Assembly (NCBI GenBank): GCA_039621445.1
Contig: CP154954.1
Span: 49,331,847-49,395,846 of the forward strand
DNA length: 64,000 bases
Direction: 5' to 3'
DNA from: Euglena gracilis
Lineage: Eukaryota
Positions 459 to 40,457 of the stretch are shown here, one piece after another; the first letter of the stretch is position 1; every line of letters begins with the position of its first letter. The notes under the pieces were generated by a model. The model did not search any database. It saw nothing but the letters and a program-made list of their open reading frames with translations, and had not been told where the DNA came from. The position numbers and the translations under genes were made by a program.

Positions 459-7967
<7,509 letters not shown>

Positions 7968-10032: not shown

Positions 10033-10119
<87 letters not shown>

Positions 10120-13849: not shown

Positions 13850-13977
13850 AACAAAGCTTTTGAAAATTGCACCTGCACAACATCCATTTTGGTGTTGGTT
13901 TGGACCCAGGGGGCAGGGGGGTCCTGAGGGCCAGTACGCAGGCCGGGGGGGGGGGGGGGCCTGTTGCCGCCTCAGTC

Positions 13978-14228
13978 GGTCGACCGGTACTTGTCTGTTA
14001 TCGTACGACGGACCCCTTTTTGGTTATGGTACGACACCCTTTTTTTTGGGTTATTTCGGGTTATTAAGGAATAGGGTTAGGTGCGCACATGCACGTTTGC
14101 GCTACATGGCCACGTTGCGCAACATGCATGTGCGCACCTATTCCTTTAAATAACCCTAAAAATAAGTGTCGTACCATAACCAAAAGGGGGGGGTCCGTCG
14201 TACGATAACAGACAAGTACCGGTCGACC
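13978..14228. mobile_element. Near-complete 250-bp palindrome (foldback element)
   Basis: ggtcgaccggtacttgtctgttatcgtacgacggacccc vs its exact reverse complement at 14190-14228; pairing continues with indels to the centre (gtgcgcacatgc/gcatgtgcgcac). Confidence 0.9.
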
Positions 14229-14648
14229 CAACAATGGGTCGACCGACCCTCGGACGGCCAACAAGGGTCGACAAGACGGGGCTCCCTTGTGTTACCCTCT
14301 TCAGGGGGGGGAGACAAATCCCTTTTGTTGCTCAACTGTACGAGGGCCCCATAATCCCTTGTGTCACTTTTTGACCCATGAAATTTTCGAGACATGGGCC
14401 ATTTGTGTGTTGGACTGTTGCAGGGCAGAACCGGAAACGGCCAAACAGCCAGGGTGGTATGTGGGGGGGGGGGGCGACCACCCCCCTCAAAACGGTGAAG
14501 GTCACCGGGGGGGTCTGCAGCCCCCCCCTTTGTTGCACTAAGGCTTCTTGTCTGTTTATGGCCGGCGCTAACTTCTGCCGGGGGGGGGGGGGGTCTGCAG
14601 CCCCCCCCCCCCCCCCCGTGCTGCCTGACCTCCAAGGGCCACCCACCG

Positions 14649-14870
14649 GGTGAATCTTTGATGGGTGAAATTTTGCTCCTTTTCCTCTCAAAATGGTCAT
14701 TTTGAGGTTGATGCTTCATGGAATTTTATCGAAATTTCCGACAACTTGCCCAAAAAGTCATTTTTGGCCATTTTTTGGCCCAAAAAAGTGCTCTCGTGGG
14801 GAACTTCACCGGTGAAGTTCACCGTTGGGGTTGGCAGAGGGGGGGGGTTGGGACCACCCGGTGAACTTTC
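14649..14870 (+). repeat. Dispersed repeat with ggtgaa/ttcacc motifs; direct copy at about 17649-17855
   Basis: About 220 bp visibly alignable between the two copies. Confidence 0.85.
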
Positions 14871-14873
14871 TGA

Positions 14874-15691
14874 TACGAAAACTGTGTCCAGAACGCCGGT
14901 TTGGGCGTGAAGCCGTGTTTCAGAACGCTGGTTCGGGCTGCCGCCCGAACCGGCGTTCTGGACACAGTTGTTGAAACCAGGGGCTCTGGCTTCACGCCCG
15001 AACCGGCGTTCAAGGAATCACGGCCAATTTCGTCCTGAAAACCCAGTTTCTGAACATTTTTGAGCATTTTTGGGCTCCTTTGGGCTCATGGCCATGTCGA
15101 TCGGCCGATTGAAGTTTTCACAGGTCTGGTGCCTTGATACCCATCGATCAAAAGCTTTTTTCAAGGGCTTTTGACAGATGGCCACAGGATTCAGCCATTA
15201 TGCACACAGCGCTTATTTTCAGCAATTGTGCATCCAAAATATGACATCTTATTTGTGAAATCCCACACCTCAGGTGCTATACAGCATATCAATCGAAAGC
15301 TCTCCCTGAGACCTTTCGCTTGGTACCCACACTGCATAGCGCCCTGAAAATTGCTGATCGCATGTTCCGACCCTTTTCGCAAATTCCAAAATCCACTGTT
15401 CACCTGCCATGTTGCCCCTTGATCGATAGCCCTTCTCAAGGGCTTTCAGCAGATGGCCTTAGATTTCAGCCGTGCTATGGTACTCTATTTCACAAAATCG
15501 CCAAATTTGGCCAAATGGAAATTATTGCACAAAATACCTTAATTTCTGGCCAAATACCCTCAAAAACTGCTCAGATATGATTGCACATGCCTACAAAGCC
15601 TTTTGGACACTTTTTGGCACTTTTTGTTTTGGGTCCCTCGGACGCCGACTTCCCGCTCAAACCGGCGTTCTGGATGCCGGCTCGGCGCAGA
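14874..15691. mobile_element. About 0.85-kb repeat element, copy A; inverted diverged copy B at about 16436-17380
   Basis: Shared cgcccgaaccggcg subterminal repeats and alignable interior (cagcgcttattttcagc vs gctgaaaataagcgctg; ggacactttttggcac vs gtgccaaaaagtgtcc). Confidence 0.85.
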
Positions 15692-17997
15692 GTGCCATGT
15701 TGCCATGTTGCCCTAACCCTACTCCTTCAAATAACCCCATAGGACCAAAAATAGGGTGTCGTGTGATAACCAAAAGGAAGGGGTCGATCGTGCGATGACA
15801 GATAAGTACCCTAAAAACTACCAATTTTTAAACCTGAATTTTTTGAGTTATATATATATTTTTTTGTGAAAAAGGTGGTTTTCCATCAAAAAATCATGTA
15901 TTTTGGGTTCATTTTGCAAATAAAATTTCAAAAAAAATTTCCCGGCAAAAATTCCCGGTTTTTTTTTGCAAAATTGGTGAAAGTGCTGCCCCCCCCCTAT
16001 TTGTCACGGCTCTAGGTGGTAGACTGGGGGGGGGGGGTAGTGGGTGGTCGGCCGACTAGTCAGCCGACCAATTGGTTGGTAGCTAGTCGGCGAGACGGGG
16101 GGGGGGGGGGAGTAGTGGGTAGTCGGCGGACTAGTCGGCCGACTACCCACTCTAATGTACTAACGGGTCAAAACCGCCGACTTTTAAGCCCCCCCCATGT
16201 AGAAAATTAGTCGGTGGCTAGTCGGTGGTCATAAAAATGGTCTGTGGCAGGTCCAAATCACCCGGAAATGGTCCGGATGGATCCAAATAAGTGCCTTACA
16301 CCAACATAAACATCCCCAGATGGAAATCTTGGTCGGTGGGGTTCGGTGGGCCCTTGATGGGGGTCCGGAGTGGTAAAAACCAATGATGAAACAGGGATTA
16401 CATGAAAATCCTTTAGAAATGCAAGCATTCTGCATCACGACAGGCTGAAACCGTGTCTGGGGGCTCCGGTTTCATGCCCGAACCGGCGTCTGGGACGCCG
16501 GTTCGGGCGGGAAATTTCTGCGCCGAACCGGCGTCCCAGACGCCGGTTCGGGCGTGAAAACGGCGTCTCGGGGACCCAAAATAAAAAGTGCCAAAAAGTG
16601 TCCAAAAGGGCTTGTAGACAGGTGGCATTCATTTTTTAGCAGTTTTTGGGTGGTCTTGGGCAAAAAATTGTGGTTTTTTGAGCAAAAATTTCCTTTTGGC
16701 CAATTTTGGAGAATTTCTGAAATAGAATACCACGCAGCACGGCAGAAATCTAAGGCCATCTGCTGAAAGCCCTTGAGAAGAGCTTTCGATCGATGGGCAA
16801 CATGGCAGCTGAAAAGTGGAATTTCAGATATGCAAATGGGGTCCGAAAAATGCGGAAAAATGCGATCGCTGATTTTGAGGGCGCTTTGCAATCTGGCTGA
16901 GTTCTGTGGGTACCAAGCGAAAGGTGTTGGCGAGACCTTTCGTTTGATATGCAATATGCAACCTGAGCAATGGGATTTGACAAATTAGGATGTCAAATTT
17001 TGGAATACACGATCGCTGAAAATAAGCGCTGCATGCATTATGGCCGAATCCTGTGGCCATCTGTCGAAAGCCCTTTAAAAGAGCTTTCGATTAATGGGCA
17101 ACATGCTTTCATAAGTATGAAATCTGCCATTTTTGACCGGCCGCCCATTTGGGCCAAAAATGCCCAAAACTGCCCCAAACATGGGTATTTTGGGCGAAAT
17201 TGGCCGTGATTCCCTAGCCGCCGGTTCGGGCATGAAACCGGAGCCCCCTAGCCACGGTTTCAAAAACTGTGTCCCAAACGCCGGTTCGGGCGGGAAACCT
17301 GTGCCTAGGCTACCGCCCGAACCGGCGTCCCAGGCACAGGTTTCCCGCCCGAACCGGCGTCTGGGACACAGTTCTCGATATAGAAAACTCCCCCCTCCAC
17401 CCCCATCCGAGCCTCAGATAACAAAATCCCTTCTGTGTTGGCCACATACTCGGGGGCTAAGTCGTTTTGTGGCTCACTTTGGCATAGGCGGGGGGGGTCC
17501 CCCCCCCCCCCCCCCCCGGAGGTTAGGCAGTACGGGGGGGGGGGGGGTGGACCCCCCCGGTGAACTTCACTGGTGAACGTTCACTTGGGGGGGGGGTTAC
17601 TTTCGGCGGTGAAGTTCACCGGTGAACTTCACTGTTTTGATGGTTGGGGGTGAATTTTTCATGGGTGAAATTTTGCTCCTTTCCTCTTAAAATGGTCATT
17701 TTGAGGTTGATGGTTCATGGAATTTAATCGAAATTTCCGAAAACTTGCCCAAAATGTCATTTTCGGCCATTTTTGGCCAAAAAAAGTGCTCTTGTGGTGA
17801 AGTTCACCGTTGGGTTAGGCAGAGGGGGGGTCCGGGACCCCCTGGTGAACTTTCAAACGGTGAACTTCACCATAGGGGGGGGAGGGGGGGTCAAAATGAC
17901 CAAAGTCTACTGCCTGATCTCCCCCCCCCACCCCCCCCCCAAATAACAAAATCCCTTCTATGTTGGCAACATACTTGGAGGGCTAAGTCCTTTTTGT

Positions 17998-19298
17998 TAA
18001 AAACCTATTTTCTGGGCCCGACGCCTGTCTTGAAATTCTACTGACATTAACGGATTTCAGGCTGAAATTGTTTATGTCGGTCGATTTCCATTCAGGCGCC
18101 CGTTTATGTCAGTCAATTTCCATTCAGGCGCCCGTTTATGTAAGTCGATTTCCATTCAGGCGCCCGTTTATGACAGTCGATTTCCATTCAGGCGCCCGTT
18201 TATGAAAGTCGATTTCCATTCCATTGAAATCTGTTGCTAGTCAGATTGGGAATTTGTAGTGATTTTTTGGACATTTTGTATTTCCATTTTTTTCGACATT
18301 TTTGGTCCTATGGGGTTGTGGAGGAGTTATGGATCAGAAAAAAACCAAATTTTGTGGCCAGGTGATCACAGCTGGCTGAACTTTGGATGGAACAGACGGA
18401 AGGACGGTACTTAAGATTATTATTTTCTGGATCTTCAGAAAAAGCATTCGGCATATTTGTCCTGAACCAGTTGTCATCACTGGTCATCTAAAAGAAAAGC
18501 TTTCGGGTGAGGAGTTATTTGGCAATGTCAACCCTATTTTCTGGGCTCGACGCCTGTATTGCAATTATATTGACATCATCGGATTTCGGGCCAAGGCTGT
18601 GTTCATAGCAAAAGGCTGTGTTCATGGCTTTGGTCAAAATCTGTGTTTGTAATAAAACGCAGACTCTGGCCTGAGTCTCTGTTTCGAAGCGCTGAGTCTG
18701 TTATTCGGCCTGAGTCTGCGTTTCGAAACGCAGACTCGGGTCAGAGTCTGCGTTTAAGAAGCAGTTCTTGATATAGAGATTGAAAAAAAGAAAAAAGCAT
18801 TCCGAAAAAGAGACAAAATGTTGGTCGACATTAACAGGTTTCAGGCTGAAACTGAAAATGTCCCAAAACGGAACAAAAAGGCATTCAAAAAAGGAAACAA
18901 AAGGTTGGTCGATTTCCAAGACATCGGAAACCGTTTATGTCCGTCGATTTCCATTCAGGCGCCCGTTTATGACAGTCGATTTCCATTCAGGCGCCCGTTT
19001 ATGTCAGTCGATTTCCATTCAGGCGCCCGTTTATGAAAGTCGATTTCCATTCAGGCGCCGTTTATGTCAGTCGATTTCCATTCAGGCGCCCGTTAATGGG
19101 CCAAAAACCACTTTTTTGACCATATTTCCGTCCAGGCGGTTCGGTCGAATGAATATCAAGACAGGCGTCGGGCCCAGACAAAATAGGTTTTAGAAAAATC
19201 GACCGACACTAACAGATTCAGCAGGGGCGCCGGGCGGCTCGCTTCGCTCGCTCGCGCCCGGCGCCCCTGCTGATCTGTCAGTGTCGGTCGATTTTTGT
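17998..19298. mobile_element. Helentron/HINE-like non-autonomous element: subterminal IRs, 31-bp tandem arrays, 3' hairpin
   Basis: IR aaaacctattttctgggcccgacgcctgtcttga (about 18000) vs reverse complement (19156-19191); arrays at about 18069-18222 and 18933-19096; hairpin 19194-19296; interrupts a host repeat whose uninterrupted versions lie at about 17420-17490 and 19363-19425. Confidence 0.7.
18069..19096 (+). repeat. Two arrays (about 5 units each) of 31-bp unit gtcgatttccattcaggcgcccgtttatgNNN
   Basis: Directly visible; head-to-tail with no unique spacers. Confidence 0.95.
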
Positions 19299-20128
19299 AT
19301 AGAAATTTTGGCATAGGCAGGGGGGGGGTGGGCTCCCCCCCCCCCCCCGCACCCCCCCCTCAAATAACAAAATCCCTTCTATGTTGGCAATATACTTGGA
19401 AGTCCTTTTTGTGCAAATTTTGACTTATATTGAAAATCCAATGGGGAGAGGTGTTCTTTTGCCAAAAGTGGCCCAAAATGGACATTTTGCCCCCAGTTTT
19501 TTTGCATATTCACCCCCGATTGGGGGGGTTCTGGAGCCATTTGGGTGGGTTTTGACTGGTGATGAGGTGATTTGGACAAAGGTTTTTTTCGGGGGGGGGG
19601 GCTTAAAAGGCGGCGAGACTGGCCCGTAACTACATTAGAGTGGGTGGTCGGCCGACTACCCCCCCCCACCCCGTCTCGCCGACTAGCTGCCGACCAGGCC
19701 CAATCGGCCGACCAGTTGGGTGGTCGGCCGACCACCCGCTACCCCCCCCCCAGTCTACCGTCTGCCACAATTTGTCACCCCCTTTGGGCTCCTCTGGACC
19801 CTAGGTGACAATAAGAGGGGGGTGGCAATTGGGGGGGTGGGTTGCCAGTAATCCACCCCCCCCATTTGTTTTTGTTTTTTGGCACACATTCAGCACGCCT
19901 GGAAAAAAATACTCAGCGCGCATGTGGTTTCTTTAGGATTACCCCACCCCTAATTGTCACCTTTTGGGGGGACAAAGGGGGGAGGTGACGGTATGTGAAA
20001 ATGAGGATTTGTCACCAGAATTCCCTATCATTGAGTTTTTGACGTCCCCCCCCCTGCTTCCTTGTTTTCATATCTTGAAAGGTTTGTTGTATTCTAAAGT
20101 TTTCCACCCACCGAACCTTTCTGCTGCC

Positions 20129-23100
20129 GTCCAAGTTGCTGTTCGTATAAGACCCATGACAAAAGCTGAACAGCTCTCTTCTCTTCTGAATCCTTGTTGC
20201 CAGAAGAACTCCTGGTGAAAAACACCTTCTGACTCGTGAGTGTCTATTTGTGGGGGAAGTGCATTTCGAGTTGTGTTGTCTGTCAGTGTTGAGGTTCGCC
20301 CCAGACAGGTGGGTCATGCGTTTCTGGAGCCGTGCTGGGAGTTCCTGTTTTGCTCTGGACCAAAAATCGCTTCAAGGCCAAGCATTGTGGGGGTCTTTTG
20401 GGGGGGACCCCCAGGGCAGAACGGGAATCGGCCAAACAGCCAGGGTGGTGGGGGGGGGGGGGGTCGACCACCCCCCCACCCCCTGCATGGTGGGGGGTCG
20501 ATCAGCCCGCCCCCTCCCCACCACTTCTTCCCGTATTTCCGGGAGGACCAATTTTTGGACCCGAAAAAAAATTTCCAGCGCCTTCGGCGCCGGGTGTTTT
20601 TTTTGACCCATTTTGGGACCCATATAGGGGGTCCCCCCAAAAACCACCCAAAACCCCATTTTTTCACACCTTCCAAAAAATCGACATTTTCTCAAAATGT
20701 TGATTTTGAGAGGTTTTTGAAGCGAACAATGCCATTGAAAGTCCAAAAAAGTTCAACGAGAAAAAATGTCAGTAAAATTTGGCTGTGCCAAAATTTCGTC
20801 CACTTTTTTTTACCCCACCCCCCCCCTAAAAGTACCAGTTTTTAGGACGGAAAATTTTGAGTTTTTTTGTGAAAAAAATGTGGTTTTCCATCAAAAAATC
20901 ATGTGTTTTGGGTTCATTTTTCAAAAAATTTTCAAAATTTTTCTGGCCAAAATTCCCGTTTCCCCGAAATTGGTGAAAATGCTGTGGTGGGTGGGGGGGG
21001 TCGACCCCCCCCCCAGGCCTTTCCGTTCTGCCCTGTTAACCCCTCCAAAGAAGCGTCCCTCCTACAGCTGGTGCCCTCTGTTCTTGGAACAGTTTGACAA
21101 ACTCCACAAAGAAACAACAGCTTTTATGAAGTGCTTCAACAGAATTCCCCAACTTTTTGACAGGGTCGTTGGAACAAAACAACATATTGTTTGATAGTTT
21201 TGATATAATTCACAAAGCATCCTGAGTGCCAAAAACCGACATGTCTAAATTCTTTGTCAGTTTTATTTTTGAAAACATTTCAGAAACGCTGTCCAAAAGT
21301 TCCAAAAACCTCTTCTCTGGAGTTTCATTCAAAATCCCAATCCGTTTCAACAACAAGGGCATTAGCTGTAAGAAGTTGTTCAAATGGTGCAGGTCTTCCC
21401 TGCCCCCCTCCGAAGGGTTTTTTTTTGGCTTGTGCCACCCCCCACATTTTTGGGTTCTGCACCCCCACTTGGCATAATAGGGGGGGGGATGACCCGCGCG
21501 AAATAAGTGGGGATGGCTTATGTCGTGGGGATTGAACAACCAGTGGTCATTTTCCACCCAGAAATCACCAGTCTCCTCAATTACGCTGCAATTCTCCAGT
21601 TGGAAGTTTCAGGGGTTCCTTGTAGAGGAAAAGCTGCCCTGATGGTGGTATTGCAGAAGGTGCAATTGTTGCAGATGGCCATTTCGGTGTCAAAACAACT
21701 CGAGTTGGGGAACCCCCGAAAGAGTTTGTCTACAAGCAAGTCTCCATTTCTTTTGGAAAAAAATTCTTTTGTCCAATGTGACACCGACACACAGGGGAGG
21801 TCGACCCCCCGATGCCGGGGGAGGGGTCTGGGACCCCATACTCCCCCCCCCCAGGGCCCAGGGGGTGGGCAAGGTATAAGTGACCATCCCCCCGGCTGAG
21901 AGGGGATTCGACACCCCCCCTCAACTAAATTTTTTCTTCCCCGGCGCTCCGTATGTTTTTATCATCATTTTGTTGAAAAAAACTCCTGAAAACGCAATTT
22001 TGGACACTTTTTGAAATCCCTCAAAAATAGTTTCCGGCGCTTCCAATAAATTTTTGACATTGACATTTTTTGGGTCGAATCCTCAAATTGAGATTTTCAA
22101 ACTTTTTTTTAAATACGCCTGAAAATTCGGACTTTGGCACAAAAATTCGGAATATCCAGCATTTTTGTCAAAAAAGTCTTTTGCAAACCGTTTTTCCTAG
22201 GAACTTTGATGATGTTCTTTTTTTTTTTTTTAACAATACCAACTTTGATTTCGGGGATTCCCAAATAGCCCCCCCCCATATTGTTCCCATCGGGCATCGG
22301 CTTGGGTGAGGGCCATTATTCTTGGGCACTGTTTTGAGTCAGGAGTGTTATTTTAGGCTAGGTGGGCACTATTTTCATATGGAGATTGGAATTGTAAAAC
22401 AGTAGGATGGATGGAGGAGTTCAGATTTGCGGATATGAAATCTTATTACATTATTGTATTTTTTAGTTTCATTGTAATTTTTTTATCATTATTATCACAT
22501 CATCATCATCATTAATCATTGTTGTTGCTGTTGTTGTTATATTATTATTGTATTACTCCAGGAGATACCAGCACCTGCAAACGGACTTTTGTGAATATCA
22601 GATCCAAACAGATGGGATTGAGATGGTGCCAGAGGAGGGATGGAAAAGGGTTCCCAAATGACAATCCGTATTGTTGTGCACAATGAAACTTAGCCGAGGC
22701 AACCACGCTTAAATATATGAAGCTGGGGGGGGGGGGCGAGCTTTAAAACTGGGAGAAGAATTAAATTGGCCAGGCCACGGTCAGTTGCTGAAGAGCAAGG
22801 GCCCCCTGACCAATTTTTTTTTGAACGTCCCTGTTTCAAATGGAGATTTGGCAACGATTACGTCTTCGACAGCGGGCAAGAAGAGGTTTGGGATTGCATC
22901 GGAAAGCCAATGCTGGCAGATGCCTATGATGGCTATAATGTGACTCTCTTTGCCTATGGGCAAACAATCAAGGCTGTTCCATTTCTGCAATGTTTAATCT
23001 TTTCTTCTTCCTTTCTTTCCATCAGTCTATTCAGTCTGGATCATTTGGGTCAAAGTTCAACAGGATTGGATGGTTTCACCTCATTTGACACCAAAAATCA

Positions 23101-26100
23101 CCGTTTTCCCCCAAGGGAAACAGTTCTAAGCTTTGAGAAACGTGAGTGTTGTTTCAAAAACCTCTTAATCGCATTTCTTTGCCGTAGTTCTATGTCATTT
23201 TCATTTTTCAGAAAAGTTTTGGAGGATTTGGGGGGGATTTGGAGCCGGGGTGATTCTGTGGAATAAAACAGCACAGACGGATGGACCCAAAGTTTATGAG
23301 TGAAAAGGGAGCTCAGCAAGCTAAATTCAAAGAAGAAGTTGGGCTCAGCAAGCAAAAAATGTATGAAAATTCAAAATTCAACGGGAGGAAAAGGAGCGCC
23401 TGGGTGGTACATTAAATTGACAGCTTTTCGACATTGATTTGGTTTGGCTCGATCTGGGGCAGGTGCCTGCCAAAAGGCATCCCGAATACATACCACCAAC
23501 AACACCCCCAGTGATTTCCATCCGAAAACGCTAATTTTCCCGCTTTGGGGAAACTTCAGAGGCCCATCAAGCACTGGATTAACTTTGAGGAAAGAAGCAG
23601 GTGCTTCTGTGAAAATGAACACAAACGAGCCATCTGGCTTTCACAACAACACATATTTTTTTTGTTTTTGTTTTTTGATACGATATATTTCTTACGGGTA
23701 TGAATCCCCCAGTTCCCACCGGAATGGCCCTGCCCACAGGGTCTGGTAAGACATACAGCATTATGGGGGAGGAAGACAGGGTTTGACAAAAGGATCTTTT
23801 TACTCGGGACCTGCTTGGGGACACAATTGACCACAGAACTGGGTGCTGCCTCCCCAGGTCCAAAAAAACCCCAGGGCAGGTGATTGGGTATCCCCCCATG
23901 TACCACCCCCCCCATATTGTCCCCCCCCCCATATTGTCCCTCGGCCCGGCCGACGAGGGGTTTTTTTGGCTCGGTCAATGAAATTTCCTTTGGTACCCCC
24001 ATATTGTCCCCCCCCCCCATATTGTCCCGTCAGGCCTCCTGGGGAGAGGTCGGTGGGACAATATGGGGGGGGGGGGGTGGTAATTGAACCCCCCCCCTGG
24101 TCATTGACCCCCTGGGCTGTTGAGATTGCATCCCCATAGTTGGCTCCGTGCGGAATAATGGCCATGCTACTTCTGGAGGTCGGGCCGACCTAGGTCGGGC
24201 CGACCATTGGCCATGGCTTATCGACCTCTGGAGGTCAGGCCGACCAGGTCGGCCGACCCCCCCTTTTTGGAAATTTAAGGCCCCCCCCCCCTCAAAAAAT
24301 TTGATTCTCTTATTTCAATTCGAAATGAATGTAAACACATCTGAATGTCCTTAAAAACGTCAAAAAAACGTCCCAAATTCAAAAAAAATTGTGGAAAACG
24401 GCTAACTCAGGTGAGATACATGACCAATGACAAAAATTCCTTTGGTGTGCAATGCCCAAACCCTAACCCTGACCCTGACCCTAACCCTAACCCTAACCCA
24501 GCTCTTTCATCCCATATTGAAAAAAAAAATTGAAAAACGCGAACTTAGTCGGCCTACGGCCTCCTCCGGGGGGGGGGGGCGGCAGCCCCCCCCCCCCCGG
24601 ACCCCCCGGTTTAAAATAACAAAATCCCCTTGTGTGTGCAAGACAAGGATGGCCAAAACGCGCGTTCTTTGTGCTAACTTAGTCGGATTTCAGTGACGGT
24701 CGGATAGCAAACAAGTATCTTCTTTGAGGCCAGAAAAATTTTTGATGTGTGTAGCCGGCTGTTCAGAAACGTGATAAATTGGCCCCTTCAAGGTACCAGC
24801 TACCCCAAAGAGCCGCCCAACTAGGGTTAATACACATGGGGGGACCCTCGCTCGGCGCCTCGCTCGGGTCCCCCCATGTTTTTAACCCTAATTGGGCGGC
24901 TCTTTGGGTTCGCTGGGTACCTTGTAGAGACCAATCTAACAACGTTGAGCGGGAAATGTTCTGCTGTTTGGATAAGAATCGTAACCCTGACCCTACTCCT
25001 TCAAATAACGTCAGAAAATCTTTTTTACCACAGGTTGATGCCATCAGGAATTCTTTTTATGCTAAAATTGCACTTTTTATGCTCCACAGGGTTTGGCCAA
25101 GGGTTTGGATGCTTTTGAAAAGGAAAACCATTGAGGTCGTTTCTATCGACCTTGTGGTCGGCCCGACCTCCAATTGGTTGGGCCGACCATATGGTCGGTA
25201 ACCCAAACAGGTCGGGCCGACCAGGTCGGCCCGACCTACAGTCAAAAGTCCTTTGAAAAAGGGGGGGGGGTAATGCAGTACAGTGGTGTTTTCTGTCGAC
25301 CTCCAGAACTAGCATGGCCAATATTCTGCCCGGGGCCCCCATAGTTGGCCCCCTCTTCTGTTGGGCCAACCGACCGCGAAAAAAGTTACAGGTTCAAAAA
25401 TGCACTTTCAGGAATGTTTTCCCCACAGAAATGTGTTTTTTGACAGACGATTTTTTGATCAGACGAGCACACTTGAGGAAGTTGGGGACCCAGATGCTTT
25501 TTTTTGCTTTTTTGGATGATTCATCCAGATGTGGAATGTCAGCCCAAGTATGGGGAAAGTGACCCTCCTGAACTGTTGGGTCCAACTTGACCCCCGAGCT
25601 TGACCCCCCTCCGCTGTTAGGCCCAACTTGACCGGTCAATAACATGAAGGGGGGGGTGTTAACCCCCCTCCTCCCTGGGATATTACCATGCCTGAGAACT
25701 TGTCAGGGCCCTGCCCGGGAAACTTTTGGGTCCCCAGGAAGGGCCAATGTGTCATAATTTGGGATTTACTTAGCCGGACCCTCACGTGGGTCCAGCCAGC
25801 CAGCACCTTTTTTCCAGCCAACTGCAAGGCTGTACAGGAGCTCCTGAAACCCAATGTGGTGGGGGGGGGGGGTCGACCCCCCACCCCCATCCTCAGGTAT
25901 AGATGGAAAGCCCATCGGTTCATATTGAGTTTGGTGAAATGTGTGAACAAAAATATGCAAAAATCCGCTTACCCCCCCCCCTCAAAGAGCACCGTCCAAA
26001 GTGGCCAAAAAATATTGGCAAATTTGGGTTTACCCCCCCTCAAACTTTTTCCTTCGGCACCAAAAGCGCCAAGGCCAAAATTGCCCCAAGAAAGCAATTT

Positions 26101-29100
26101 TTTTTTTACCGACTGGTGCCCCCGGGGGGGGGGGGTGAGTTCGTGGGGACCCAGAAATTTTTCATTGAAAATGGCCTTTTCTGGGCCCCCGGCACCTTCG
26201 GCACCAGGGTCGAAGGGGGTGCCTGCCCAAAAACCCGACCCCCCCTGGGGGGGGGTTCGGATGGGTGCTCTTGGGTGCCTGGCACCCACCCCCCCGTGGG
26301 GTAGGCCCCAACGGAAAAAAGCCTGCCCCCCACAAAGTGTCCCCCCCCCAGCGTGGCCATTTTGGGTCCCACGGTGCCTCGAGGGTAGCCACTTTGGGGG
26401 TGAGGGCACATGCGCACTTTTCTTGAGACTTTTTTGAGACTTGGAAAACTTTCAGGAAGGCCTGGACCCTTGGACATTTCTTCAAACAGTGACTAAAAAA
26501 GAAATGGAAAAAGCGGCCCAAAGTGGCAAAAAATGGCTTGAAATGACCTCAACTTGCCAAAGAAAAAGGTAAAAAAAAGTTGGCCCAAATGGCCAAGAAG
26601 GTCCACAGCACTGAGGGGGTTCCCCCCAACCACCCACCCCCTGGGGGGGGGGGTGGGGGGGGGGGGCTGGTCCCGGAGGACAAGCAGCCCGACACGCCCC
26701 TCTCCCTGGGGGGCCAGGTGGGGGGGTATCTGCTGGGGTTCGATATGAGGAGGGTGTACGGGGTTTAGGTGGGGTGCCCTCCTGGGACCAGAGGAGGGGT
26801 CCGGACCGACCCCAGGGGCGTGCCCGGGACCCCCCCAAAAGGTCAATTTTTTCCTTCTGGCGCTTCGCACCGTAAAATTTTTTGGCCTTTCTGACAAAAA
26901 ATACTTGCCCAGAATGTGTCCAAAATGGCACATTTGCAATTTTGGGGGTCAAAAATCTCGGCCCAGCGCTTTATGCCAGACTGAAATCGGTCACCCAGAC
27001 TGTGCCACAATTAAGTCGGGACCCCCCCCCTGCTGGATCGGAGGGGGATCCGACCCACCGTCCCCTCCCTCCATGGCAAGTTCCAAAAATAGCTAATTTT
27101 TTTCTTCCAGTGCTGCGCGCCAATAAATAAACAAGAAATGCCATTTTCCCTTCACTTTTGAGAATATTCCTGTTTTGCTTTGGTGTTTTTCTGCATTAAA
27201 AGGTTTTGAAAACCGTTCAAAAATGAGCATCTTTGGATTTATTTTCAAAGAGGAATCAGGCTTCGGCCTGGTATCTGGCTGGCCCTTTGCCAGTCCAACA
27301 AAAATTTTCCTGGCCCCCTTCAGTTGGAGGGGGGGTGCGACCGACCCACCCAACCCCTCTGTGTTGGGAGGGGTGGTCAGGACCCCCCTCAAGGCTTCCC
27401 ACACATCCCTGCCCATCCTGCTGGGTGGGGGGGGACGACCCCCCCCCCTCACCAGGCTTTCCCGGGCTTCCGGGGGGTGCCCATTTAAAGTCAATTTTTT
27501 TCTTCGGCACCGAATAAATTTTCCCTTCGGTGCTGTAGTGGGTGGGTAGAGGTCAACCCCCCCCACCAGGCCTTCCGTACGGCCCTGGCCGGCTCCCCCC
27601 CGTGGATGAGGGGCTCGGGGGGTGTGGGCTATTGTGCTGGACCCGGGTTGTACCCCCCCCCCTCCCCCTTGACCACTGAACCACCCGTATTTGCCAACCC
27701 CCCCCCCCAATCGGGGGTTGCGTACAACCCGCGATTGGCGATGACCTCACAAAGCAGGGTTTTTTGGGGCATCGGGTCATACGACCCCGGTCGGGGAATT
27801 GCAGGTCAGGGGCTTTGTTGCTCCCCCCCCTAGTTTTTCACATTGGGTGTTCTTCTGTGAGCCCCAGTTCAGCAAGCGTCTCTGAGGAAAAGGGGTGCTT
27901 GCCAGCAAGCCCAGAATTCTACAGGAGCCAGCCCAAATTTCAAGCTCTGCCCAGCAGCCACTGGGTCGCAGGGGGCAAGGGGGGGGGTCGAATTACTGGT
28001 GATTTGACCAGGTCGCCATACCATGACCACATCATTGTCGCTATACCATGACCAATGGTCTCCAGCAACCATCAAAAATCCCATGGCCAATTTTTCTGTT
28101 CTGCCCCACAACCCCCCCCCCCCCGGATGAACGGGAATAAAAACAGGAATTGCTGCAACCGTATTTGCCCCCCCCCCCCAACCTGCAGTCAAACCCTGGA
28201 GGAGGGGTTCCCTGGCCTGATTCCCCGGTTCGTCAGTGCCATGATGGGGATGGCCCAGGACAAGCTTCAGGCAGACTCAACCCTCTCTGTGAAGAGCATG
28301 AACCTCCTTGGCATTTTTAATTTTTTGTTTTTTTCAAAAAGTTGAATTTTGAATTAAATAAATTAATTTTAAAACCACAAGATTAGTATTCAGTATTCCA
28401 CACCAGTGCCATGGAGGTTTATGGCCCGCTCACGATGGAGTACATTGAGATCTATAACGAAAAGATTCGTGATTTGCTTGAAAGAAGGAAACCAGGACAA
28501 GTTGAGTTAAGTGAGCTGTTCAAGAGACACCACAAGCTTATTTTTTCTAGTTTTTTTGTTAAATTTCTTATTTAATACTGTTAAAAAATAAGCTGCTGAA
28601 ATTATATACATATGTGTATTTTTTAAAAATAATATTTTCTTGTTGACAGCTTCTGGTCATTGCCGTGTCAGCCACATCATCACGCCCTGTTTTGTTTGAA
28701 GCGCATGGACCAGACTTATTTTCAGGAAGCCCCCCCGGGGGTGTGGCAGGGGGGTGGGGTGAGGCATTTTCGACCCTCCACCAGGGGTGGGTCACCGAAG
28801 GCACCAGGGCCCGAAAATGTCCATTATCAAGGGGGGAAATTGATTGGGTCGGCCTAGGCCAAGACCCAAAGGACCCCCCAGGGTATTTGCTATGCCGCCA
28901 CAGGGGTTGGTCAAAAGAAGCCTGCATGGACAATTTGACCTCAAGTGCCTCAAGTGCAGTCAACTGTGGCAATTTTTAGATAAAATCGAATTTGAAAATT
29001 GTGACCAACAAAAATGTTTGAAATAATGGGTGGTGCTTTCATGCCCAGCTTGATTTACCATGAACCCCCCTCTAAATGACCCCCCATCCCAATGACCATT

Positions 29101-29720
29101 TGGGGGGGGGTCCCTTTGGTGTGCGGAAGTCCCCCCTAAGTGAACCCCTTTCCCCTAGATGACTCTTTGGAGGACATGGACCAATATCAACAAGGTCAGA
29201 AGGGGTTGATGATAAATGAATAACATCCTCCCTGCCATTTGAGACGTTTTTTTTTTTTTTTTTTCTTTTTCGACCGGCCCTGCATGAAACAAAAGACCAC
29301 CGGGTTTTTGTGGAGGGAGTGTCGGTGCACACCATCTTGACACTTGAACGGGTGAACACACTGCTGGCCAAGGGTTTTGCACAGCGGCAGACTTCAGAAA
29401 CAAATATGAACGAAAAGTCTTCACGGTCTCATGCCGTTGTTATCTTTCGCTTGGCACAACTCAGGGAACGTTGCCCGTGTTCATTGGAAATTTGTGGTAT
29501 CAAGCCTCTATTTTGTCATCTTTTGATCTTTTCTGAATTTGCTTTTTTTCCAACTCGCAAAATTGGTCCCGACAGAACGAAATGATGGGGTGATATTGGC
29601 ACCTCCACCTCGCATCATAGATCCTCTAAGATTTTTGGATTTGGCAAATTAACAAACCAACCAACCAACCAACCAACCAACCAACCAACAAACAAATAAA
29701 CAAGCAAACAAACAAACAAA

Positions 29721-29804
<84 letters not shown>

Positions 29805-32800
29805 ACACCACACCACACCAAAGCCCATCCAGCGTCAAAAAACAAGCTTTGATGATAATTGCATGTGAATTGCGGAAGAACTTGTCGGCCAGGATCATTT
29901 ATTTCCTCTTGCGTTCTCGCGTCAATTTGTCAGCAATGTTGTTCACAAAAGTCTCGTGAAAAGATTACCCCTCCATTGTTTTGTGTCTGACCATCAATCC
30001 AAGCGTTGTGTGGGGCAGCAGTCCCTGGGGACAACCCACGACCCTCCCAACCCAGAAGCGCGCGACGTAGAGAGTACCATTTGTATTGTGGACCTTGCAG
30101 GCAGTGAGCGCCAGAGCAAGACTGGGTCCTCAGGAGACCGCTTTGAAGAGGCACGGAGGATTAACCTCTCCCTGTTGACCCTCAGCCAAGCTGTTCTTTT
30201 GAAGGTGAGGGCAACAACCCCCCCCCCTCCCCACAGGTGCGCAGGGTGGGGGTTTCATCCAGGGTAGGGGACCACCTGCCAGGTGTCCAGCCAGAACCAC
30301 GTGGGAATACCCGAAACCCTGCGGGTGGTGGGGGGATCAACCCCCCCAACCCCCATCCTGGTGGGGGGTCGGACCCCCCCCACCAGGCTTCCTTGTATTT
30401 CCGGGTGTGCATTTTTGGGTCAACGTTTTCTTTTGGTGCCAAAGGAATCTTTCCAGGGTGCATTGAAATGAAAATATCCAGTTTAACCAAGCTGTGTCCC
30501 TTGAAAAAAATTTCGGCACATAACCAAACGACTATGAAGCCCTGCGGTTGGTGGTGGGGCAACAGGTTTAATAGTATTTTCTGAGAAAGTTTGCCCAGGA
30601 AGTGTCGCAAAAAAATTCTTTTTGGGGTTTGTTTTTGTGGTACAATTTATTTCGGCTCAGTGACTCCCCCATGCCTAAAATGGCCCAATTTGGCTCCCTC
30701 CCCCCCCCCCCTCCCCCCTAGCCCCCCCCCCCCCCCGGCTGTTGGGGCCAACAGCCCCCCCCTCCCCCAGTTGCCCCCCCCCCCCCGGCTGTTGGGGGCG
30801 AAATGTACCCCCTTTTTTATTTTTGAGGCAATTTTGGCTTGGCGGCTTGTTGGCCCCCCTCCCCCCTTCGTGTCACCCAACCCCCTTTGCCATAAAGCAC
30901 CAGGGGGCACAAACCAGAAGGAAAATATAAAACCTGTTGTCGATGACAAGCTCACCCAGCCCCCAGGGTCCAGTACATGGCAGGTAGAGTGGGGGGCCTG
31001 CACCATGATTCACTTAGTTGACCCCAAAGCTGCCCAAGTTTTTCTGAAAATGCGCAACACTCCCCCATGAGAGGTTGACACACCCCCCCACCCATCCTTT
31101 TTCAAAAAAAAATAATTGTGCCCAGCATTCAGTGGGGAAGGCTGCACTGGCCCCAGGGTTGTATGGGAAGCTCCGCAGACATGAGGTAGGTGGTGGGGGG
31201 TCACCCCCCCCCTAGAGGGGTAAGGTGGTAGGGGGGGGGCCCTCCACCCCCCCCCCAGTTTCGGAAGGGGGGTCCCCCCCTCCCCCCTCCCCCCCTCCCC
31301 CTCCTATGCAGAGGAAAAAAAAAATTTCCGGCGCTTCGCGCCGGGGGTGTATTTTAGGACTTTTTTGGAGGCTCAACATGAAATTTTGGCAAAATGGCCA
31401 AAAATGACCACAAATCGGTATAGGTGGGGTTGCATGGAAATCAAAGCACTGTTAGATAAGGCATTTTAAGGGCTTCAATTTAGGTATTGGACATTTCTTT
31501 TGATTCCCCACCATTTTTGAGAAATTTCAGAAAAATTGACCTTTTGACTCCAAAAAGCGGTCGAAATTTTCGGCGACCGAAAACTGGAGGTAGGAGGGGG
31601 GTCCCCCCACCCCCCCCCTCCCAGTTTCGGAAGGGGGGTCCCCCACCCCCCCCCCTCGGAGATTCCCAAACAACCCTGACTGGCCCGGACCATGTTGGCC
31701 CCAACAGGCCAGGGAGCCTGCTTCGGGGGGGGGGGGGGCATGTTCACTCTAATTGGGGAACTTTGGGGGTTAAAAATGACAAACACATTCGAGCGTTTTG
31801 CGGATCCCACTGGGGTCACCCCGGCAGCCAGCATGACCGGAGCATGACCGGTTGCTTGAGAATTCCCATTGCCCTTCAAAATGGCTTTCAGAAAACGGAA
31901 AACCCCTCTGGGTTGGCCGAGGACAGCCTGCCTTGGGCCGTGCGCTGAACTCATTTTCTGAAGGCAAGGGGCCACCGGGCACTCCCTCTTTTCGGCACTG
32001 TCTCGAACCTTGTTTTCTTTTGGTGGAAAAAGATGTATGAATCAGATTTGAATGTGGTGTTCATCATTCATTGTATTGATGGAGTTCAGCCCACCAGCAG
32101 GTATCCAGTTGGTTTGATTTCTGAAAAATTTTGCGTTGCATGAGCAGGGTGAGGGGTCGCTGCCAATCATCAATAGCAGAAGGTTTCCACCATTTCCCAC
32201 CCCCCCTGGGGAGTATTTGCCTGGTTGCAAGGAGGGATAGCAGTAGATATTCATTTATCCAACTTTTTTTTAATGCGCTATGCATTCACCACATTTTGTA
32301 TGCATTCACAAATTCTTTTTCTTTTGTTGGTTATTTGCTCACCCACTGCACTGGCACTGGATAATGAGGGCAGTAGTGCAGGCAGATGGCATGGTTTTAG
32401 AAATGGACGGGTGCTGCCGTTGCGCGAGTCCAAATTGACGCGGTTGCTGTCTGAGAGTTTCGGTGGGAACTCGAGGACTTGGATGCTGGCCTGTGTCAGC
32501 CCCAGCATGTACAACTACATCGAGACCGTCTCCACTTTGTCCAGCAGGCTCCGCAAACAAAGCTCTCCGGGCACGCTGGGGGAAAATGGGAAGTTCTGCC
32601 CTGGTTTCAAAAGGCTTGGGTTCCTTCCGTATTCGTTGAGCTCTGCTGCGTGCAACGTACGCGTCTTCGGCAAAGAACATCATCAACCATGCAAAGGTCA
32701 ACGCTTTGCAGCAGAAGCTTGAGTTGCAGCCAGGCTGTTTTGTTTGAGGGCAAGAAGGAAGGCATTTCGGCCTCCATGTTCCAGAATGTGCTGGGGACAT

Positions 32801-35800
32801 AGACGTACCCCCCCCCCTTTGCCCACCAACCACCCCTGAATAACGACCACCCCCCGGTTGGGGGTTGCAGGTCAGGGGGTGCGTACGACCACCTCCCTGA
32901 TCGGGGGTTGTCGGTGGCTTTGGAAACTGGTTTGTTTTTGGCATCTAATCGTACGACCCCCTGGTCGGGGGTTGCAGGTTGGGGGGCGTGTACGCCCCCC
33001 CCCCCTGTTGGGGGAGTAACTTGGGTGGCTTGACTCGCACGTTGATTTTTGCACTGCTCCCAAGCGCAATGTTGCAATCTTTTTGAAACCCGGCGGTGAA
33101 ATCCACCCTTTTGCCCTTTGGTCCCACCGAGAACCTCTACAATGGCACGTTCATTTGGTGGTCTTTTTGGCCGGTGCACCATGTTGAAAAAAGTCCAAAA
33201 CCCCGGGTTTGAACTCTGGGGCACGTGATTTCTCCCAAAAAGGGCCGTTGTGATTCCCCCATTGTGATTCCCTTGTTTTGAAGCTTTGACTGTTTTCCCC
33301 AGATGGTGCTACGCAGGCTGGGTGAATTTTGGCCCTTTTTGTTGCTTTTTTTTTTAGGCTGTGCGATGTCCGTGTGGGGTTGCCTGCTGAGGCGCCCAGA
33401 GGGTGGACTCTGCACACACGTTGTGAAAAAGGTGGAAACCCGGTGTGCCAGGGAGTTGTGATCCCTGGGTGCTTGAAGCGCGAGGAGCGGTACACTGGGA
33501 ACCACCCAGGTAGAGGGGTTGGGGGGGTTGGATTGAGGGGAAGCACGTTCAAGCTCACCTATTGCGTATGTGCGCAATGGATAACTGTTGCGCATGTGCG
33601 CATGGTAAACGGAAGCCCCTGATCTTATGGGCCTCTCTCTGGCATGTTATGGTGTGTCAGGAGCAGCTTGTGCTTAGTCGGTGCCTCCCCCCACGGGGGG
33701 GTGCTAGGGGCAGGCATCCCATAGCACCCGATCCGACCCCCCCCCCGGGGGACGGTTTTGGAGGGTGCCTGCCCATAGCGGGCACCCCCTCCGACCCCGG
33801 CGCCGAACGCGCTGGGGGCCCGGAAAAGGCCTTTTTCAATGAAAATTTTGTGGGTCCCCCAGACCCTATCCCCCCCGGGGGGGGTGTGCCTGCTAGGGGC
33901 AGGCAACCCTATAGCACCCACCCCCCCCCATTGGTAAGCACAAGCATGGTCAGGAGACCCTCTCTGCACGGCCAGTGTTGGGCTTGGTGAGGAAATTCAT
34001 TTCGCCGATAGGAATGCACTCTTTATACATACACAAGCATGCCCATTGCGCAGATGCGCAATGAACATGTTAGCATATGAATTGTTATAACTGCCAAGTG
34101 CGCAATGATCACCCACATGTAGAATTAAAAAAGCCAACATCGCCGATGCGCAATGTGTTTTCATTTTTTTGCAATGAAAAGAATTGTTGTGCAACTGCAA
34201 CAATGGAGTCCCCTCGTTTCATTTCCTGGCGCTTTGGGTTCATGCACACTGGGCCTTGGCAGCCTGTGTCTTCAGACCATGGTGTGTTCCAAGTCGTTGT
34301 TTTCGCCCCAGTCCCGGGGGTGCAGGGTCACACCAATTCGGTGAAACCTGGGGCCTCGGTGTTTGAATACAGAATTTTTTGGGACATTGCACATCGGCGC
34401 AAGCTTACAGTCACTTTCACAGCTAAATGCGAGTTAGGCTGCCTAACTTGTAGGAACCCGGGGGGGGTAGGATGTATTGACACGCTGTCTTGGATGGGGG
34501 AGTAATGCATTTCCCTGCACTTTTATATCATCATCATTGGTCTTATATTTTAACTTTAACCCTTTTTGAGTAATAATTTTCATTTTCCTTTTTGGAGGTT
34601 GTTGTTTTCTGGAAACAGTTCCAAAATCATGCTGGGACAGCAAAAATTTTTGATTCATTCAATGTATTTGACTCCAGCTTATGACATTAAATGAATTTTG
34701 TTTCGAACTTGGCCTGGCTTGAGTCCGCCTTGAGCAGGGGCCTATTTATATTTAAGCAGCACATGATGGCAACCCTGGCCACCCACAAAATTTGGAGTGG
34801 CAGTAATCAATTCCCCCACTGTACGTGGTGTGTGTGTGTGTGTGTGTATAGATAGATAGGAAGATATGGATGTATTTGTGTGTTGGGGCCATATTTTTTT
34901 TCCATGGCAGGAAAAATCTGATATTGGAGATGTGGGTTGGTTACCAAAATGCCCTGATTGCAACAGTTGCGGAAGCAATATGCTCAGCTGGAAGAATTGT
35001 GGTCAAGGCGCACCCTTCTGCTTGCTGCATCTGATTTGTGGCCTCATTTAAAACAGTGCATTGCACAGGCCCATCAGTCCTGTTGCCGATCTCAAAAACG
35101 CGCTCTCAAAATTTGCTCAGCCAATTTTCATTTTTTTTTTCAGGATTTTGATGGGCAACCAGCAGTTCTGCGATTGGGAGGGGACAGGCTCTACGGGAAT
35201 CCCTGAAACCCCAAGGCGACCCCATGTTTCAGGCGAGCTGATTTTTAGGTCAAAAGTTTTCTTTGGCGCCGAAGGAATTTTCTTTTGCTCGGTTCTGCGG
35301 GGAGTCGCCCACCTCCCAAACCCCCAACCAGGCCTTCCCATTCCGCTGGAGGGGGGGGGCTTGTGCAAGCTCTTTTTCAGGAAGGTCGCACCCTCGGAGG
35401 GTGCTATGGGCAGGCAGGGGAGTACAACAGCATTTTTTTTAGGATTGGGACCCTGGGGGGATTGGGGGTGGCAAACAAAAAGAACCTGTGGCAAATGCAA
35501 AGAAAAAATTGTGTTGCAGAAAAGTGCTGTTAACACGGGGGGGGGGGTGTCAACGAAACGCCGCGCCAACAACAAGGCTGGGTAACCCCCCCCTCCCGGG
35601 AGAACCACTCAGCGGCTGGGTCATCGGGCTGAGTGGTTCTCTGGGGGGGTTACCCCTCCCCCTTGTTGTTGCCACGGGATGTCGTTGACACCCCCCCTGT
35701 GTCAACGGCACTTTTCTGCAACATATTTTTTTTGGTGAAATATGAGAGGTCCAATCATGGAGGCCATTTGCTGGTGCGGTCTGTTTTTTTTTTATGGGAT

Positions 35801-38800: not shown

Positions 38801-38885
38801 CGCGCTGCTGGGGAAGCGGCTGGTCCAGGCGGCAGGCGGTGGAGTTTCCGTGACGCTGGGTGGGTGGGTGCTTGTGGGTGGGTGG

Positions 38886-38932
<47 letters not shown>

Positions 38933-40412: not shown

Positions 40413-40457
<45 letters not shown>

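Follow-up and report, generated by a model that had tools for sequence, protein, structure and literature searches.

The window analyzed here, a 64-kb stretch (64,000 nucleotides) of the Euglena gracilis nuclear genome, contains a kinesin gene (motor plus C2 domain; 12819..42320, + strand) with 18 exons and 17 introns, none of which (0/17) has GT..AG borders. The gene was found by tblastn with P0002 (EukProt EG_transcript_6461; precomputed Pfam matches PF00225, PF16796 and PF00168), and its spliced model comprises 611 amino acids followed by TGA, with 607/611 residues identical to P0002. RNA joints define 13 of the 17 junctions, a loose RNA end defines one and protein alignment defines three; the junction 28518/29277 was placed by protein alignment, and contig pieces begin at 29277. 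Twelve of the 17 junctions are slidable, that is, ambiguous in register. The window also includes an adenylyl-cyclase paralogue with a probable nonconventional intron (5781..5919, + strand), the junction of which is the best-scoring in-frame join against P0010 and was thus placed by paralogue homology, without RNA.

Splicing register of the kinesin introns

Euglenid nonconventional introns follow the splicing code N3-CDG/CH'G-N5-6|R, which combines 3-nt and 5-6-nt spacers, paired ends and a purine-first exon (Nomura 2025). The N3/N5 rule has been proven experimentally by knock-in (Nomura 2025; PMC12501133): N3 is strict, one extra nucleotide (+1) is tolerated beyond the preferred N5, and 50-bp inserts of entirely synthetic sequence are spliced when they carry the code features (PMC12501133).

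A first-pass annotation, made from the sequence alone, had stated that the introns of this window have CAG behind their first 3 nt and CTG ahead of their last 5 nt, and that 3 + 5 equals the 8-bp duplication of nearby transposable elements. In its strict form the rule describes 6/17 kinesin introns. When the ends CAA/CTG, CAA/TTG, CAC/GTG and CAA/GTG are also allowed, the register N3-CAx...xTG-N5, with the cuts lying 3 nt outside a terminal stem on the 5' side and 5 nt outside it on the 3' side, fits the junctions of 11/17. The remaining 6/17 are not of the 3+5 type: the two spacers add up to 7 in two of them, 9 in one and 6 or 10 in one, and a clear stem was not found in the other two. Among the four whose stems are clear, none has a repeat matching its own spacer length. 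In intron 21725-22846, RNA reads join 9 nt off the N3/N5 register. The downstream exon opens with a purine in all 15 canonical-register introns (15/15). Beyond short motifs, the ends of the 17 kinesin introns showed no similarity to one another, and no near-identical intron family was found in the 64 kb (two genes).

Free elements with 8-bp duplications

Seven free MITE-like elements lie in the 64 kb, with ends CA(G/T)...(C/A)TG and 8-bp target-site duplications (TSDs) in which 55/56 positions are identical; no strand is assigned to any of them. Family B includes a 525-bp element at 31154..31678, within intron 30184-31935 (ends CAGGGTTG...CAACCCTG; flanks ACTGGCCC/ACTGGCCC, 8/8), and a 486-bp element at 2649..3134 (flanks CACACCCC, 8/8), the 3' end of which reads ...CCCTA, the terminal G being mutated to A. 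Family A includes a 488-bp element at 35878..36365, within intron 35001-36744, with CAGGGAATTTCTTAAG ends, a 16-bp perfect terminal inverted repeat (TIR) and GTGCCAAC on both sides (8/8), as well as an element at 51811..52294 that has the same CAGGGAATTTCTTAAG ends, is 85% identical to the former and lies in the opposite orientation (flanks TCCACCGG/TCCACCGC, 7/8, or 8/8 once the element is shifted one base left). A 301-bp element at 8337..8637 has a mutated 5' end reading AAAG... and flanks CAGCCAAT (8/8). These five elements, their ends and their 8-bp duplications had been reported in the first-pass annotation and all stand; two more were added, a 285-bp element at 33664..33948 within intron 32728-34961 (duplication GTCAGGAG, 8/8) and a 437-bp element at 60053..60489 with a 17-bp perfect TIR, ends CAT...ATG and duplication AATACCAT (8/8).

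The length of the duplication was assessed by comparing the k bases before each element with the k bases after it, anchored on the stems. For the seven free elements, flank identity is 55/56 at k = 8 versus 0.23-0.36 at other k. Exact flanking repeats beside inverted repeats likewise peak at 8, with counts of 25, 10, 15 and 2 for lengths 6, 7, 8 and 9. A scan of the window for TIRs of at least 11/13 with CA[GA]G ends returned 66 candidate pairs, five of which have flanks matching at 6/8 or better: three MITEs, one G-run artefact and the kinesin intron at 23774-28203, hereafter intron e.

Intron e and its flanking octamers

Intron e (23774..28203, + strand) is a genuine euglenid nonconventional intron. 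RNA joins 23767 to 28198, skipping 4430 nt, with 6 ambiguous bases, so that 23774-28203 is one of the permitted registers, which run from 23768-28197 to 23774-28203. This joint is supported by 33 + 27 = 60 read pairs in RNA run X21 and by one contig each in X1, X2 and X5 (four runs), and the published transcript protein runs across it. None of the allowed registers has GT..AG borders; only in register +6 does CAG occupy +4..+6 and CTG -8..-6. In that register the intron agrees with the published code throughout: N3 is AGA, followed by CAG, an 11-bp stem, CTG and GAGGA as N5, and the next base is G (28204). The 5' TIR, CAGGGTTTGAC (23777..23787, + strand), pairs at 11/11 Watson-Crick positions with the 3' TIR, GTCAAACCCTG (28188..28198, + strand), and cofolding of the intron ends gives -23.8 kcal/mol for a stem that has CAG/CTG at its base.

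The stem is flanked by two octamers, the putative copies of a target-site duplication. The left one, GAGGAAGA (23769..23776, + strand), consists of 5 exon and 3 intron bases, and the right one, GAGGAGGG (28199..28206, + strand), of 5 intron and 3 exon bases. They are identical at 6/8 positions, both mismatches falling within the three intronic N3 bases, and the octamer found at the mRNA junction is the right copy. The perfect 11-bp TIR, the 6/8 octamers and the junction itself are therefore as the first-pass annotation had described them. By the usual marks of a MITE, a TIR plus a duplication of fixed length, intron e scores 11/11 and 6/8, versus 55/56 for the flanks of the free elements.

The annotation had also held that intron e has the ends of the local MITE family. 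A 7-base terminal motif is indeed common to both, but matches between intron and MITE ends stop at CAGGGTT or CAGGGAA, and no family shared by an intron and a free MITE was found in the window. Nor does a second copy of the terminal 200 nt of intron e occur within the 64 kb, a weak test confined to the window. The interior of the intron contains two degraded, nested copies of resident elements: one of the 2649-3134 family (27043..27418, + strand; blastn 68% over about 400 nt), with a 3' end that again reads ...CCCTG, and one of the 33664-33948 family in opposite orientation (26128..26301, - strand; blastn 76% over 188 nt).

Three other introns had been listed with partial octamer repeats, and their counts were reproduced. 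Intron l (32728..34961, + strand) has GTTGCAGC/ATTGCAAC (6/8; RNA joint 32723>34958, 5 ambiguous bases), and intron i (30184..31935, + strand), of the form CAA...CTG, has CCCTCAGC/CCTTGGGC (5/8; RNA joint 30183>31936, no ambiguity). The adenylyl-cyclase intron at 5781-5919 has ATCGCGCC/GCCGCGCT (5/8), at a junction based on homology only.

Across 15 introns (11 of them from the kinesin gene; four of the 15 placed by paralogue homology rather than RNA), stem-anchored identity peaks at k = 8 only, at 0.48 for the 11 kinesin introns (42/88) and 0.43 for all 15 (52/120); all other k in the range 3 to 13 give 0.15-0.35. Permutation with shuffled pairs gives p = 0.0029-0.0035 for the 11 kinesin introns and 0.0048 for the 15. 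Mismatching the same 15 introns yields an octamer match of at least 6/8 in 2/210 pairs; for any single intron a 6/8 match thus has a chance of about 1%, to be weighed against the 15 introns considered. The expectation of a peak at exactly 8 was thus borne out on this small scale. Low octamer matches (1-2 of 8) are seen in 5/15 canonical-register introns. The positional profile is noisy, with 6, 5, 7, 9, 8, 8, 5 and 4 of 15 introns matching across positions -5..+2 and 6 matching at -6; the best-scoring position windows are shorter than 8, and -6..0 is favoured about equally with -5..+2 (15 introns).

Origin of the introns

The most likely ancestor of intron e (probability about 0.6) is a non-autonomous DNA transposon bounded by CAGGG...CCCTG terminal inverted repeats, and splicing by the published code would remove this element together with one copy of its duplication. 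The ancestral element would have entered a kinesin exon, duplicating 8 bp of target as the surrounding free MITEs do, and the intron would later have expanded to 4.4 kb through nested insertions. Once transcribed, the two inverted repeats would pair within the pre-mRNA, and the splicing machinery would take the base of the stem as its measuring point: the 5' cut would fall 3 nt upstream of it and the 3' cut 5 nt downstream, before a purine, and the exons would be joined. Because 3 + 5 = 8, the removed piece would correspond to the element plus one duplication copy, and the mRNA would thus regain its pre-insertion sequence. Since CAG...CTG is its own reverse complement, splicing should work in either orientation. 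Selection for splicing alone could, however, be behind the 11-bp stem. The evidence from intron e supports, without proving, the published idea that nonconventional introns have transposon beginnings; the observation made in the first-pass annotation is confirmed and its interpretation is partly supported.

The same model may apply with a different kind of transposon. The free elements are provisionally regarded as hAT-like: in common with hAT non-autonomous elements they have an 8-bp duplication and short inverted repeats, and classic hAT ends open with the same few bases, which would speak against a non-hAT reading. The hAT target consensus is weak (T at position 2, A at position 7) and is not evident here, with a full fit in 2/7 duplications, only seven having been sampled. 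No hAT transposase, BED finger or dimerisation domain, nor any autonomous element, was found in the 64-kb window, and none of ten ORFs scanned had a Pfam match (0 of 7 in the interior of intron e; three in 16146-19646). Maize Ds, a non-autonomous hAT element, can reportedly be spliced from transcripts (Giroux 1994, as cited in PMC3935182). Excision of Ds from RNA relies on cryptic spliceosomal sites and tends to be imprecise. Merlin DNA transposons have been reported in E. gracilis, with near-perfect inverted repeats and two families in the assembly, both with 8-bp TSDs (PMC8101967). The 8-9-bp duplication typical of Merlin covers the 8 bp of the free elements, so the earlier label 'hAT-type by established criteria' was too strong and the hAT assignment is unproven. 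Compared by description, however, the inverted repeats of Merlin end in a conserved 5'-GG-3' (PMC8101967), whereas in the free elements CAG or CAT directly abuts the duplication. A tentative possibility is that the free elements belong to a different superfamily with 8-bp duplications (Merlin, P-like or Mutator-like).

It is unlikely that the introns are unrelated to the MITEs, with stems and CAG/CTG having evolved to serve splicing and the repeats reflecting a pyrimidine|purine preference at the splice sites. A consensus at both junctions does lift in-phase identity (0.31-0.32 in octamers of mismatched intron pairs versus about 0.27 at other offsets), the excess identity is concentrated at -3..0, and the small sample of 15 introns comes from a window in which introns and MITEs share no detected family. 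However, shuffled pairs retain the junction consensus and are still exceeded (p 0.003-0.005), three independent features (CAG, CTG and 8) agree with the resident MITEs, and a newly gained, strain-specific nonconventional intron of gapC has eight-nucleotide direct repeats (PMC4770533).

The authors who saw those repeats proposed that the gapC intron arose by repair (PMC4770533). Formation of the introns from staggered double-strand breaks repaired with filler DNA, instead of transposase-mediated insertion, is nevertheless improbable here: such repair would account neither for the inverted repeats at the termini nor for a length fixed at 8, nor for free elements that exist in multiple copies and share these ends and this duplication length. 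According to a review (PMC11282704), nonconventional introns form full-length circles on excision, and they have ends in common with the free elements, but a derivation of the MITEs from such circles re-entering the genome is highly improbable, as a re-inserted intron would bring the N3/N5 of its old site without duplicating the new one, whereas the clean 8-bp duplications of the free elements abut CAG and CTG directly and the N3/N5 bases of the introns resemble local exon flanks.

A transposon origin for intron e invites comparison with introners of Micromonas and other algae, which are likewise inverted-repeat DNA transposons with a target duplication enabling exact removal from mRNA, the element supplying one splice site and the duplicated target the other (PMC11282704). 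Introners differ in having 3-bp duplications, spliceosomal removal at GT/GC-AG and large near-identical families (PMC11282704), in contrast to the stem-distance cuts, non-canonical borders, 8-bp duplication and lack of such a family in the Euglena window. The MITE-derived introns of Fritillaria borealis and Amoebophrya are closer in having non-GT/AG borders, inverted repeats and border duplications, and have been read as the host adapting to transposon load; a modified spliceosome is thought to remove them, whereas euglenid nonconventional introns leave after conventional ones, as circles (PMC11282704).

Eleven kinesin introns, intron e among them, share the code of known euglenid nonconventional introns and do not differ from them in kind (Milanowski 2014, 2016; Nomura 2025). 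In 2014, transposable elements had not yet been identified in euglenids (Milanowski 2014). As the first-pass annotation had noted, a general transposon origin of these introns has been proposed before; a MITE origin is already in print, TIR and TSD labels included. The passages proposing it give no duplication length, superfamily or free elements, and nothing in print was found to link 3+5 explicitly with the 8 bp that resident CAG...CTG MITEs duplicate. What is added here is the presence of same-ended free neighbours with 8-bp duplications, together with the stem-anchored peak at 8.

Intron 23774-28203 and the eight-base signal at intron ends

The 4.4-kb nonconventional intron at 23774-28203 is one of 17 introns of a kinesin gene (12819-42320, + strand), and the first-pass annotation had singled it out as a likely former transposable element. 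It is a real intron: the RNA joint 23767>28198 that spans it, with six ambiguous bases, is supported by 33+27 read pairs and 47 start points in the sequencing run X21, as well as a single contig from each of the runs X1, X2 and X5. CAG occupies +4..+6 and CTG -8..-6 of the intron in the rightmost allowed register only, in which the cut sites lie 3 nt outside the terminal stem on its 5' side and 5 nt outside it on the 3' side. The terminal repeat matches at 11/11 positions. The flanking octamers (left, five exon and three intron bases; right, five intron and three exon bases), which are putative copies of an 8-bp target-site duplication, agree at 6/8. Both differences lie in the intronic N3, and the mRNA octamer GAGGAGGG consists of the left copy's first five bases and the right copy's last three.

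The intron is non-coding and carries later insertions, as it contains no long meaningful ORF, none of its seven scanned ORFs has a Pfam family, and two local MITE families are represented inside it by degraded copies (27043-27418 and 26128-26301). It is rich in G/C runs and internal inverted repeats, and a second copy of its terminal 200 nt is absent from the 64-kb window. Long G and C runs in MITE-like repeats at 26643-26666 and 30696-30722 draw many RNA reads with loose poly-G/poly-C ends, and yield an 'opposite strands' joint, 26643/30696, with 31 read pairs in X21. The probable source of these reads and this joint is an artefact of the repeats or of the library, or else transcription of other copies.

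The first-pass annotation had placed CAG after 3 nt and CTG before the last 5 nt of these introns in general. This holds in part: CAG/CTG stands exactly at this N3/N5 register in six of the 17 kinesin introns, and 11/17 fit once CAA/CTG, CAA/TTG, CAC/GTG and CAA/GTG are allowed, leaving six off register. The stems of the fitting introns are visible in cofolding.

The proposal that octamer identity should peak at exactly eight bases, above shuffled pairs, was borne out, with a peak only at k=8 and p values of 0.0029-0.0048 over the two intron sets. In the 11 fitting kinesin introns, the octamers agree at 42/88 positions (0.48) versus 0.317 for mismatched intron pairs (permutation p=0.0035; 0.0029 in a longer run). 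With four adenylyl-cyclase introns added, agreement is 52/120 (0.43) versus 0.314 (p=0.0048), in a sample of 15 introns that comes from two genes and includes four without RNA support. In a stem-anchored scan of k from 3 to 13, identity reaches these 0.48 and 0.43 solely at k=8, and ranges over 0.15-0.35 (11 introns) and 0.23-0.35 (15 introns) elsewhere. The signal is uneven. Matches per position among the 15 introns, from -5 to +2, are 6, 5, 7, 9, 8, 8, 5 and 4; position -6 has 6 and position +3 has 5. In this noisy profile the windows -3..0 and -6..0 score at least as high as -5..+2; five of the 15 introns show 1-2 matches only. The four kinesin introns with other spacer sums have no repeat at their own spacer length. 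A transposon origin of intron 23774-28203 is the favoured reading, with a probability of roughly 0.6.

Free elements with eight-base duplications

The five MITEs reported in the first-pass annotation (2649-3134, 8337-8637, 31154-31678, 35878-36365 and 51811-52294) are all present with the CAG/CTG-type ends and 8-bp flanking repeats ascribed to them, the repeats being identical at 8/8 in four and at 7/8 in one. The elements 35878-36365 and 51811-52294 are 85% identical and lie in opposite orientation, while 31154-31678 and 2649-3134 have common ends (77%). A window-wide scan for exact flanking repeats at inverted repeats, from which duplications with fewer than three letter types were excluded, returned 25, 10, 15, 2, 1 and 1 sites for lengths 6, 7, 8, 9, 10 and 12, respectively, with a bump at 8; owing to that exclusion, 2649-3134 is missing from the list. 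Two further convincing elements emerged from the scan, at 33664-33948 and 60053-60489. Several 8-bp matches, among them 11830-13329, 26210-28778 and 14809-17623, were set aside as spurious, since exons lie within them or no credible inverted repeat bounds them. The flanks of the seven free elements agree at 55/56 positions for k=8, versus an identity of 0.23-0.36 at other k from 3 to 13.

To look for families shared between introns and MITEs, the 200 nt at either end of each of the 17 kinesin introns (half the intron where it is shorter) were compared with the window by blastn, which gave short or self matches only. A scan of metagenomes for full-length MITEs of the 35878-36365 and 51811-52294 family gave no match.

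DNA transposons of the hAT superfamily are expected to show 8-bp duplications and a CAG start. The free elements, which the first-pass annotation had called hAT-type, have that duplication length and start, and are provisionally termed hAT-like here; the label goes no further because another superfamily that makes 8-bp duplications, Merlin, accounts for the DNA transposons described in E. gracilis in the accessible text of PMC8101967, and because the window holds no transposase (a Pfam family was found in none of the 10 ORFs scanned, from 16146-19646 and intron 23774-28203). Merlin repeats are said in the same source to end in GG, unlike those of these elements. Membership in a superfamily other than hAT is the less likely reading, though a substantial one.

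The first kinesin intron contains a 3.5-kb element (16144-19658) whose ends are inverted (..CCCACTCTAATGTA) and which shows a direct repeat of 10-12 bp (GTCGGCCGAC..); none of its three scanned ORFs has a Pfam match. It probably represents a transposon class other than the MITEs, because its duplication differs in length from theirs. Long CA/TG-type and ATAC/TATG-type microsatellites at 400-1100, 9800-10300, 49200-49800 and 62500-63000 appear as His/Thr/Tyr-rich or Cys/Val-rich pseudo-ORFs.

Spacer lengths and duplication length

According to the accessible text of PMC12501133, which contains the N3/N5 code, splicing is lost when the 5' spacer changes by one base, a 3' spacer of 5 is preferred and one of 6 tolerated, and a purine is obligatory as the first base of the next exon. 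The same text reports that E. gracilis splices wholly synthetic inserts of 50 bp that combine CAG/CTG and 3/5 spacers with complementary arms of 12 bp, and that 71.8% of E. agilis introns are nonconventional. All of the cis requirements would come with a transposon that has CAG...CTG inverted repeats and makes an 8-bp duplication. Along with the element, excision would take out extra bases amounting to exactly one copy of the duplication, and either orientation would be equivalent because the termini are mutually reverse complementary.

Nonconventional splicing may then be a ruler-type RNA excision in which the spacers of 3 nt and 5 nt are matched to the 8-bp duplication made by one CAG...CTG transposon class, so that exonic insertions before a purine, in either orientation, leave a scar-free mRNA; this reading is tentative, and we hold it at slightly under even odds. 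As a bolder, purely speculative extension, the putative nuclease could descend from the transposon's own machinery. Two published observations are consistent with the proposed mechanism, as far as the available portions of the sources go: a strain-specific, recently gained gapC intron of E. agilis has eight-nucleotide direct repeats (PMC4770533, whose authors read them as double-strand-break repair), and introns are excised as full-length circles (PMC11282704). The observation made in the first-pass annotation is confirmed, and its interpretation is supported in part.

The 3+5 idea is attractive and testable, and only incrementally new. A MITE origin of these introns is in print (PMC3935182, PMC12501133, PMC12621601 and PMC11170887, in the text accessible), the legend of Fig. 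3D in PMC11282704 labels CAG/CTG 'TIR' and the junction repeats 'TSD', and the eight-nucleotide repeat had also been published. Full-text literature searches outside subscription journals turned up no naming of hAT for these introns, no 8-bp duplication length for the parent elements, no description of free CAG...CTG MITEs in Euglena and no equation of 3+5 with the duplication length; figures and supplements may show the relation. The main text of PMC12501133, figures and supplements apart, lacks '8-bp' and 'eight', its lone '8 bp' being the -8 position of CTG.

The 3+5 link makes the loose 'MITE-like' hypothesis quantitative and falsifiable. If it is true, the parent transposons should have a duplication length equal to the sum of the code's two spacers, young introns should carry exactly eight duplicated bases and empty alleles one octamer, and resident CAG...CTG MITEs, put through the existing knock-in assay, should work as introns just as they are. 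The ruler reading would also account for the odd N3/N5 code and for the nonconventional majority among Euglena introns. As with introners, a target duplication would guarantee exact removal of a transposon-derived intron, and the introner mechanism would gain a non-spliceosomal counterpart.

The kinesin and adenylyl-cyclase gene models

The best named relative of the query 22721-22966 is a kinesin, the EukProt protein EG_transcript_6461 (P0002), which tblastn places on the + strand at 12819-42317 with 94-100% identity in HSPs not running into introns, which identifies the DNA as that of E. gracilis or a strain very close to it. Thirteen junctions of the model derive from RNA joints (15 of 73 joints being listed), one from a loose end and three from protein-guided placement; the RNA evidence comprises three contig runs (X1, X2 and X5), presumed to be RNA, and the raw RNA-seq run X21. 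The model translates into 611 aa and a stop, with 607/611 residues identical to P0002. GT..AG borders occur in none of the 17 introns in any allowed register, and junctions are ambiguous by 1-6 bases in 12 of them.

Outside the 3+5 register are introns 20166-21638 and 28294-28427 (spacer sum 7), 38605-38692 (9) and 40869-42178 (6 or 10), as well as 12972-20134 and 28518-29275, which are without a convincing stem. The last of these may be of an 'intermediate' type, since its 3' end, which is not AG, is preceded by a long T tract and its ends form no clear stem. Intron 32539-32653 has a GT start but a GC end.

An adenylyl-cyclase (PF00211) paralogue lies at ~447-7440 on the + strand, with 54-84% identity to EG_transcript_1910 and EG_transcript_2386. 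The protein collection lacks the exact transcript of this gene, the best matches there reaching 83% and 76%. At least four of its ~10 introns are compatible with the N3/N5 code, as placed by homology only from the best-scoring in-frame joins against the paralogue. The remaining ~6 stay outside the counts, their best-scoring junctions being ambiguous or off-code.

The mRNA octamer of kinesin intron 32728-34961, GTTGCAAC (32723-32730 / 34958-34965), is a perfect palindrome, and therefore the flanks can pair mutually besides being direct repeats; the cofolded stem continues through the splice sites. Another kinesin intron has two junctions 9 nt apart (within 21725-22855). The junction 21724>22847 is used by contigs of X1, X2 and X5 and by all 41 X21 reads loose-ended at 22847, giving the protein ...EFGNDY..., whereas P0002 reads ...EFVYDY... 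there, which corresponds to the N3/N5 register 21733>22856. Both junctions take out the stem-defined element (21737-22850) and 8 nt, and the pair could reflect nonconventional splicing that is alternative or differs between alleles. At exonic positions 30069, 30132, 32443, 32663, 38723, 40779 and 42203-42290, single-base differences are present in roughly half of the X21 reads, a sign that the kinesin may be expressed from two alleles or from near-identical paralogues; P0002 also differs at residues 174 and 192.
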